Part shown: piece after piece, positions 34,354 to 35,050 of the stretch
How the letters are laid out: every line of letters starts with the position of its first letter
How positions within the stretch are numbered: the stretch's first letter is position 1
DNA from: Dictyostelium discoideum
Taxonomy: Eukaryota
Assembly: GCA_000004695.1 (NCBI GenBank)
Contig: CM000152.2
Coordinates: 4,896,001 to 4,960,000 of the forward strand
Length of the DNA stretch: 64,000 nucleotides
Direction of reading: 5' to 3'
Notes under the pieces: generated by a model
Databases searched by the model: none
Told to the model about the DNA's origin: nothing
Seen by the model: only the letters and a program-made list of their open reading frames with translations
Translations under genes and position numbers: made by a program

Positions 34354-35050
34354 ATGGAGTTCTTTTCAAATTTATATGGAAAATATTTATCAAAACAAAC
34401 AAATGTTAATAATCATTATTCAAACAATAATTCTATTTCATCAAATATCGATTTTGAATCAATGAATCTTGGTTCGATTAATAGGATTATTGGTTTTGAA
34501 TTTGATGAAGATTTTTTTAAAAAAATTGATAGTAATGGTGATACTGCTCTAACTTTTTTTATTTCTGAAATTATAAAATTTCAAAAATCTCAATCATTTA
34601 ATACCGATTTAAAATTATTTAATAATTCAAAATATAGATATTTATTAGACATACAAAATGATTTTGGTGAAGTTTGTATTTTTTTATAATAATAAATACC
34701 TAAAATTTTATAAATAAATTTTATAAATGTTTTTTTTTTTTTTTTTGAAAAATTAACATTTTTATTTACTATTTTTTTTTTAAAAAAAAAGACACCATTA
34801 CATGTTGCAGGTTATTACAAATAATAAAACATTGACAGAGGCTTTGTAAAAGCTAATGCAAATGCAGGAATTAAAGATTATAGAAATTTAACCCCATTAG
34901 ATATGGCAATTATGTTGGAATATAATGATATTATAAAAATATTGGAAACTTCTGAAACTTCAAAACAATCAAATGTTCAATCAAATATTTATAATTGGGG
35001 AGAAATTCTTACCTCAGATTTTTTATTAAAATCAGAATGGTGGGTACTAG

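Follow-up and report, generated by a model that had tools for sequence, protein, structure and literature searches.

Human IBtk-alpha and S. pombe Btb1 are Cullin-3 substrate receptors that combine ANK repeats, an RCC1 array and two separated BTB domains (PMC4447969). A Dictyostelium discoideum gene with the domain order ANK–RCC1-like–BTB–BTB has this arrangement in common with them (N-terminal ANK, RCC1-like propeller, two BTB stretches), although the protein, with 893 aa, is without the ~500-residue C-terminal extension of IBtk-alpha. The shared domain order makes the Dictyostelium protein, from architecture alone, probably a candidate Cullin-3 (CRL3) substrate adaptor. In the deposited sequence premature stops lie within this otherwise conserved gene, and in this respect the locus is like a unitary (strain-specific) pseudogene. 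However, its relatives show no relaxed constraint, the sister lab strain is without the lesion, and the discrepancies resemble errors rather than decay. Compensating-frameshift errors in Sanger-era references, hidden by a tiny artificial intron, are the other class with which the locus can be compared. Here likewise a 30-nt GT..AG gap is involved, the out-of-frame stretch matches orthologues in the shifted frame and a patch of reference-only discrepancies is present; there is no substantive difference from this class, the case being known here from assemblies.

Gene structure and position of the stop codons

The window, meaning the whole stretch of 64,000 nucleotides analysed, belongs to the D. 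discoideum AX4 chromosome 3 reference: the ORF at 55424-56644 on the minus strand is identical to DDB_G0281777 of D. discoideum AX4. It is very AT-rich (~22% GC) with short, AT-rich GT..AG introns. For comparison we used an AX2-like assembly (L002; GCA_054883475.1, ACTFIT) with 99.73% identity to the window over 23.1 kb, whose protein ACTFIT_011572 is intact and has 893 aa. A model of five exons gives 893 codons that are stop-free except for the two codons studied here:

34354-34671, plus strand: exon 1, 106 codons from the ATG, with ANK-like 'GDTALTF' and the first half of a hairpin (..NDFGE)
34672-34791, plus strand: intron 1, 120 nt, GT..AG, 7% GC
34792-35039, plus strand: exon 2, with ANK repeat 2 (TPLHVA...), ANK repeat 3 (LTPLDMAIMLEYNDIIKILE) and the RCC1-like start (YNWGE)
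35040-35178, plus strand: intron 2, 139 nt, donor GTGGGT
35179-36625, plus strand: exon 3, RCC1-like beta-propeller and BTB domain 1, 0 differences from the AX2-like assembly
36709-36990, plus strand: exon 4, with the second error-like patch (36880, 36955, 36968, 36979-36980, 36990)
37085-37471, plus strand: exon 5, BTB domain 2 and C-terminus, stop codon at 37469-37471

The raw letters of 34300-35250, read in three frames, place TAA TAA in frame at 34822-34824 and 34825-34827; together with the exon model this confirms the tandem stops that the initial annotation had located in exon 2. Exon 1, whose boundary is conserved at 6/6 orthologous loci, has the proper ATG and the 'GDTALTF' motif described there, but not the length of 111 aa: five of those codons are read-through into intron 1, leaving 106 aa. 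The splice from 34671 to 34792 is in phase 0 and yields a canonical ANK hairpin (...NDFGE|TPLHVA). After the acceptor AG (34790-34791), exon 2 reads as deposited TPLHVAGYYK-TAA-TAA-NIDRGFVKANANAGIKDYRNL-TPLDMAIM, with the apparent stops at positions 11-12 of a 33-codon unit. The ATG at 34903, which starts MAIMLEYND, shares its frame with the remainder of the gene. Exons 3-5 (RCC1-like, BTB, BTB) are free of stops, as had been stated, and the gene terminates on TAA. The real introns of the gene measure 83-139 nt at 7-12% GC. Several window-specific differences fall within intron 1 (34699-34748), and in intron 2 the length of an A-run is not the same in the window and in the AX2-like assembly. 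The intron 2 donor (35040-35045) is GTGGGT in AX4 and the AX2-like strain, whereas wild isolate L001 has the consensus GTAAGT; the codon that ends exon 2 covaries with it, encoding Cys versus Ser at residue 189.

Immediately downstream and convergent with the gene lies the TOR kinase gene (38791 to ~46150, minus strand), which has 0 base differences from the AX2-like assembly; wild D. discoideum isolates, D. citrinum and D. firmibasis share this synteny of the two genes. Elsewhere in the window, a ~600-bp element occurs at least three times within 22900-28200 in diverged form (72-85% identity), at ~23052-23650, 24573-25300 and 27460-28170, and a fragment in inverted orientation lies at 23130-23266. 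The element is either a tandem gene family or a repeat, and the wild isolate (L001) has a different number of copies. A long perfect trinucleotide-repeat tract at 19800-20000 (self-match at 3-nt offsets) is found in the AX2-like locus too; such tracts are typical of Dictyostelium homopolymer-amino-acid coding repeats.

The compensated frameshift and the deposited protein

A DNA alignment of seven genomes displays two single-base differences, 36 bases apart, that occur in the window only. They enclose the apparent stops and a gap in the AX4 gene model:

34810, plus strand: extra G (+1 shift); window GCA-G-GTT, six other genomes GCA GTT
34846, plus strand: missing base (-1 shift, frame restored); window single G (GCTTT-GTA)
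34811-34846, plus strand: 12 codons correct only in the +1 frame, translating to VITNNKTLTEAL
34822-34827, plus strand: apparent TAA TAA, (A)AT AAT AA(A), the N-N-K codons one base off
34811-34840, plus strand: spurious 'intron' of the AX4 gene model, 30 nt, GT..AG, 23% GC

The other six genomes read GCA GTT ATT ACA AAT AAT AAA ... TTR GTA. The doublet at 34846 is GG in the AX2-like assembly (TTG GTA) and AG in the remaining genomes (TTA GTA). Between the two sites, 34811-34846 shows 0 base differences from the AX2-like assembly once the indels at its edges are set aside, and its +1-frame codons are GTT ATT ACA AAT AAT AAA ACA TTG ACA GAG GCT TTG. The initial annotation had proposed an alignment with orthologues: none of the six other genomes has the stops, and the shifted frame matches at 12/12 positions, against 0/12 for the frame as read (GYYK, two stops, NIDRGF). 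In the three-frame reading, too, VITNNKTLTEAL resembles ANK helix 2 better than NIDRGF does. Twelve codons are out of register, and TAATAA is therefore a misreading of the conserved AAT AAT AAA (Asn-Asn-Lys). On the aligned letters the lesion is a compensated +1/-1 frameshift and not the exchange of two residues for stops. The perfect 33-residue spacing noted initially stands, and is kept because the +1 and -1 indels cancel; the claim that two residues of the repeat are replaced by stops does not. Deletion of G34810 and restoration of the missing G lead to a stop-free ORF of 893 codons. As deposited, the window has GCAGGTTATT at 34807-34816 and GCTTTGTAAAA at 34841-34851; if these are errors, as seems very probable, the true letters at the two sites would be GCAGTTATT and GCTTTGGTAAAA.

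Domain searches discriminate between the frames. In the ANK test (PF00023 / PF12796) the corrected frame scores 32.1 bits with Pfam Ank (cutoff 21.1) over profile positions 2-32 of 33 and 41.0 bits with Ank_2 (cutoff 27.3). This Ank match lies at residues 105-135, its 32 bits being the score of the isolated segment. The frame as read, with XX in place of the stops, stays below the Ank cutoff at 19.3 bits. In the whole corrected protein (P0133) Ank_2 covers residues 98-157, WD40_RLD scores 220 bits, RCC1 scores 166 bits in five stretches and BTB (PF00651) scores 62 bits in two separate stretches; the ANK module precedes the RCC1 array, as in an IBtk/Btb1-like architecture. PDB sequence hits comprise the propellers of UVR8, HERC2, RPGR and RCC1 as well as designed ankyrin-repeat proteins (DARPins).

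Could the stops be translated? Recoding, whether by stop read-through, reassignment of TAA or two programmed frameshifts, would account for the in-frame position of the stops and for nothing else. None of the remaining ~890 codons is a stop, and TAA also terminates the gene itself; the peptide produced by read-through (GYYK??NIDRGF) matches the orthologues at 0/12 positions with a poorer ANK score; and the sister strain requires no recoding. We regard this explanation as hardly credible, and the read-through suggested by the initial annotation is unnecessary. A ciliate-type reassignment of stops was also rejected, given that the species is D. discoideum, that Gln is encoded by CAA and that ~890 codons hold no further TAA in frame.

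The deposited AX4 protein (XP_001733000.1 / EDR41072.1 / B0G136; P0136) has 883 aa and reads TPLHVA-G-FVKANAN. The window, spliced with the 30-nt GT..AG gap at 34811-34840, reproduces XP_001733000.1 exactly; the window is therefore the AX4 reference, with the stops bridged by a mini-intron of the annotators. That this is a genuine intron, and the 883-aa form a genuine protein, has in its favour that GT and AG are present, that the frame is kept and that the RefSeq/UniProt model contains it. However, the same bases encode VITNNKTLTE in six orthologues, are coding in frame in 6/6 of them with the exon structure otherwise conserved, and removal of the corresponding 29 nt there breaks the frame. 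Apart from its GT..AG ends, the segment also differs from the real introns of the gene in length and GC content, and the spliced 883-aa protein loses all Pfam ANK hits, staying below the cutoff in every Pfam ANK family. A real mini-intron is very improbable indeed. GT..AG micro-introns of 28 or 30 nt were rejected on the same grounds, the segment being coding in the orthologues and of the wrong size and GC content. A contig index look-up with the AX4 protein P0136 returned no record, no literature was found on the accession numbers, and the literature search gave nothing relevant in dictyBase notes on the handling of frameshifts.

Homology searches found uninterrupted full-length orthologues in D. 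discoideum (ACTFIR_000465, 94% identity), D. citrinum (84%), D. firmibasis (76%) and D. dimigraforme (64%); the four read TPLHVA-VITNNK(T/S)(L/F)T(E/K)..L-VKANAN. A D. discoideum AX4 paralogue (P0005, 47% identity) is likewise uninterrupted at the corresponding place. The initial annotation had also considered pseudogenisation of the ANK module with a restart at the methionine of 34903. This option is not supported: the sister lab strain and five other genomes all carry an intact copy, and all pairwise comparisons among the six intact orthologues give ω of 0.08-0.33, indicating purifying selection rather than the relaxed constraint of a pseudogene. Nor is the lesion reproduced in independent sequence, the ORF of the near-identical lab strain being intact. 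In D. cf. discoideum (L004, 3154-3223) the deposited model ACTFIY_007595 has an additional 70-nt intron inside exon 3, which drops ~23 residues of an RCC1 blade (GFDNSFLITSNGSVYSFGSAIS); judging by its likeness to the AX4 mini-intron, it may conceal a frameshift or assembly error.

Differences between the AX4 reference and other assemblies

Holland et al. 2025 reported Nanopore and Illumina assemblies of AX2-214, two wild D. discoideum isolates and two possible cryptic species, and also of D. citrinum, D. dimigraformum and D. intermedium (PMC12745789). Neither exon 3 nor any part of the TOR gene differs between the AX2-like assembly and the window, and L002 must therefore be an NC4-derived lab strain. 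From its near-identity to the window and the strain list of the paper, in which AX2-214 is the sole lab strain, we infer that L002 is AX2-214.

Window and L002 differ at 62 positions in total. Leaving homopolymer-length differences aside, these form three patches: 33460-35060 and 36682-37044, both overlapping the gene, and 46200-46598. The longest stretch without a substitution measures 9183 bp (simulated P = 1.5e-5), and the variance/mean ratio is 5.2 in 500-bp bins. Polarity was assigned with two outgroup loci (L001 and L003): L002 equals both outgroups at 22/23 substitutions, the window equals an outgroup at 0/23. As many as 18/23 substitutions are transversions, only four are G:C>A:T, and in many the base has become identical to the one beside it (AAATCAA to AAAAAAA, TCT to TTT, AGA to AAA).

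The coding substitutions specific to the window comprise six nonsynonymous and two synonymous changes (Fisher P = 0.012 against natural divergence). Through them the window alone has K57, N729, N754, F758 and K762, the last four encoded in the exon 4 patch, where all other genomes agree on R, D, Y, S and S, respectively. K57 comes from position 34523 in exon 1, which is A in the window and G elsewhere. Altogether six reference-only base changes (34523 and exon 4) lead to these five altered residues, which XP_001733000.1 has inherited. The changes in exon 4 and at 34523 are probably further base-calling errors.

A second AX2-like locus (L010, covering 45.4-64 kb) shows that the patchy pattern recurs elsewhere in the window, and error-like patches are similarly present in intergenic DNA across the window. 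Further tight substitution patches against the AX2-like assembly lie at 47684-47822, 51620-51727, 57043-57752, 58701-58717 and 61022-61056; kilobases of perfect identity separate the patches. The patch at 46.2-46.6 kb is window-derived against the outgroups.

These data bear on the possibility that the lesion is a real mutation of AX4 or the AX3 lineage, in which case a compensated +1/-1 frameshift would have produced a strain-specific pseudogene or hypomorph. The protein would be truncated after 116 residues, and an ANK-less RCC1-BTB protein might re-initiate at M144 (ATG 34903), a start that shares its frame with the downstream coding sequence. The deposited sequence does carry the lesion, and all derived changes lie on the AX4 branch, as real AX4-specific mutations would show. 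AX3 and AX4 were derived by chemical mutagenesis, which could in principle give clustered changes. However, alkylating mutagenesis is expected to give G:C>A:T transitions, unlike the transversion-dominated spectrum found here, comparable patches occur in intergenic DNA across the window, and elsewhere the gene shows strong conservation. Nuclear mutations have been measured at 2.9e-11 per site per generation (PMC3466296); at this rate two NC4 descendants should, after as many as 1e5 generations, differ by ~0.1 real substitutions over 19 kb. The two descendants of one isolate compared here show over 20 substitutions, and indels besides, in three patches of at most 1.6 kb, which exceeds the measured rate by orders of magnitude. 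A real AX4 lesion is improbable, and the patchy, window-derived and mostly transversional changes speak against pseudogenisation as well.

Conversely, the reference might be right and the new Nanopore/Illumina assemblies wrong at these sites. Homopolymer errors do occur in long-read assemblies of AT-rich genomes, and many of the indels between window and L002 lie in A/T runs. Yet six independent assemblies from two projects and a Logan short-read contig agree against the window at non-homopolymer sites, and it is their version that encodes the conserved protein; the chance that the assemblies are at fault is practically negligible. The Logan assemblies were searched by exact look-ups of the exon 1, 2, 3 and 4 ORFs in their AX4 and AX2 versions, and the look-ups found only the ORF of exon 4 in its AX2 version and that of exon 5, which both versions have in common. 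The contigs (SRR26869256, SRR26869258; L007-L009) are from another D. discoideum strain, which over 1.9 kb mismatches L002 at 9 positions and the window at 18, and L009 carries the non-window alleles in exon 4. They end at intron poly-A runs and therefore do not reach exon 2.

Origin of the stops and consequences for the AX4 reference

The tandem stops are, with high probability, base-calling errors in a low-quality Sanger patch of the AX4 reference. Such an error, one of the options in the initial annotation, is favoured by the seven-genome alignment, the polarity, the clustering and the spectrum of the differences. In this scenario the G at 34810 would have been called twice and the GG doublet at 34846 once, and through these two single-base miscounts 12 codons of ANK repeat 2 would be read in the wrong frame. 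The miscounts would sit in a low-quality Sanger patch of chromosome 3 in the 2005 reference, the patches being of about Sanger-read length, and the true gene would encode the intact 893-aa protein. That two errors compensate exactly within 36 nt is a coincidence; both indels are miscounts of G doublets and lie within a patch that holds more than ten other discrepancies. In resequencing studies, sites at which all AX4-derived lines disagree with the reference are already treated as likely reference errors. The feature is almost certainly not real biology.

The AX2-like assembly has the protein in its correct form, with 893 aa (KAM9950322.1). The entry XP_001733000.1 / B0G136 is wrong in that 10 residues of ANK repeat 2 are missing, and besides this deletion it has two wrong flanking residues and five spurious substitutions. 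AX4 is the strain behind most Dictyostelium genetics. If the lesion were real after all, an IBtk-like candidate Cullin-3 adaptor would be knocked out or N-terminally truncated in AX4 while AX2 and wild isolates are intact, an unrecognised difference between two standard lab strains. On the preferred explanation, base-calling error, the AX4 reference holds sub-kilobase patches of clustered errors that extend into exons, and premature stops, odd mini-introns and strain-specific variants called on this reference should first be checked against the newer long-read assemblies.
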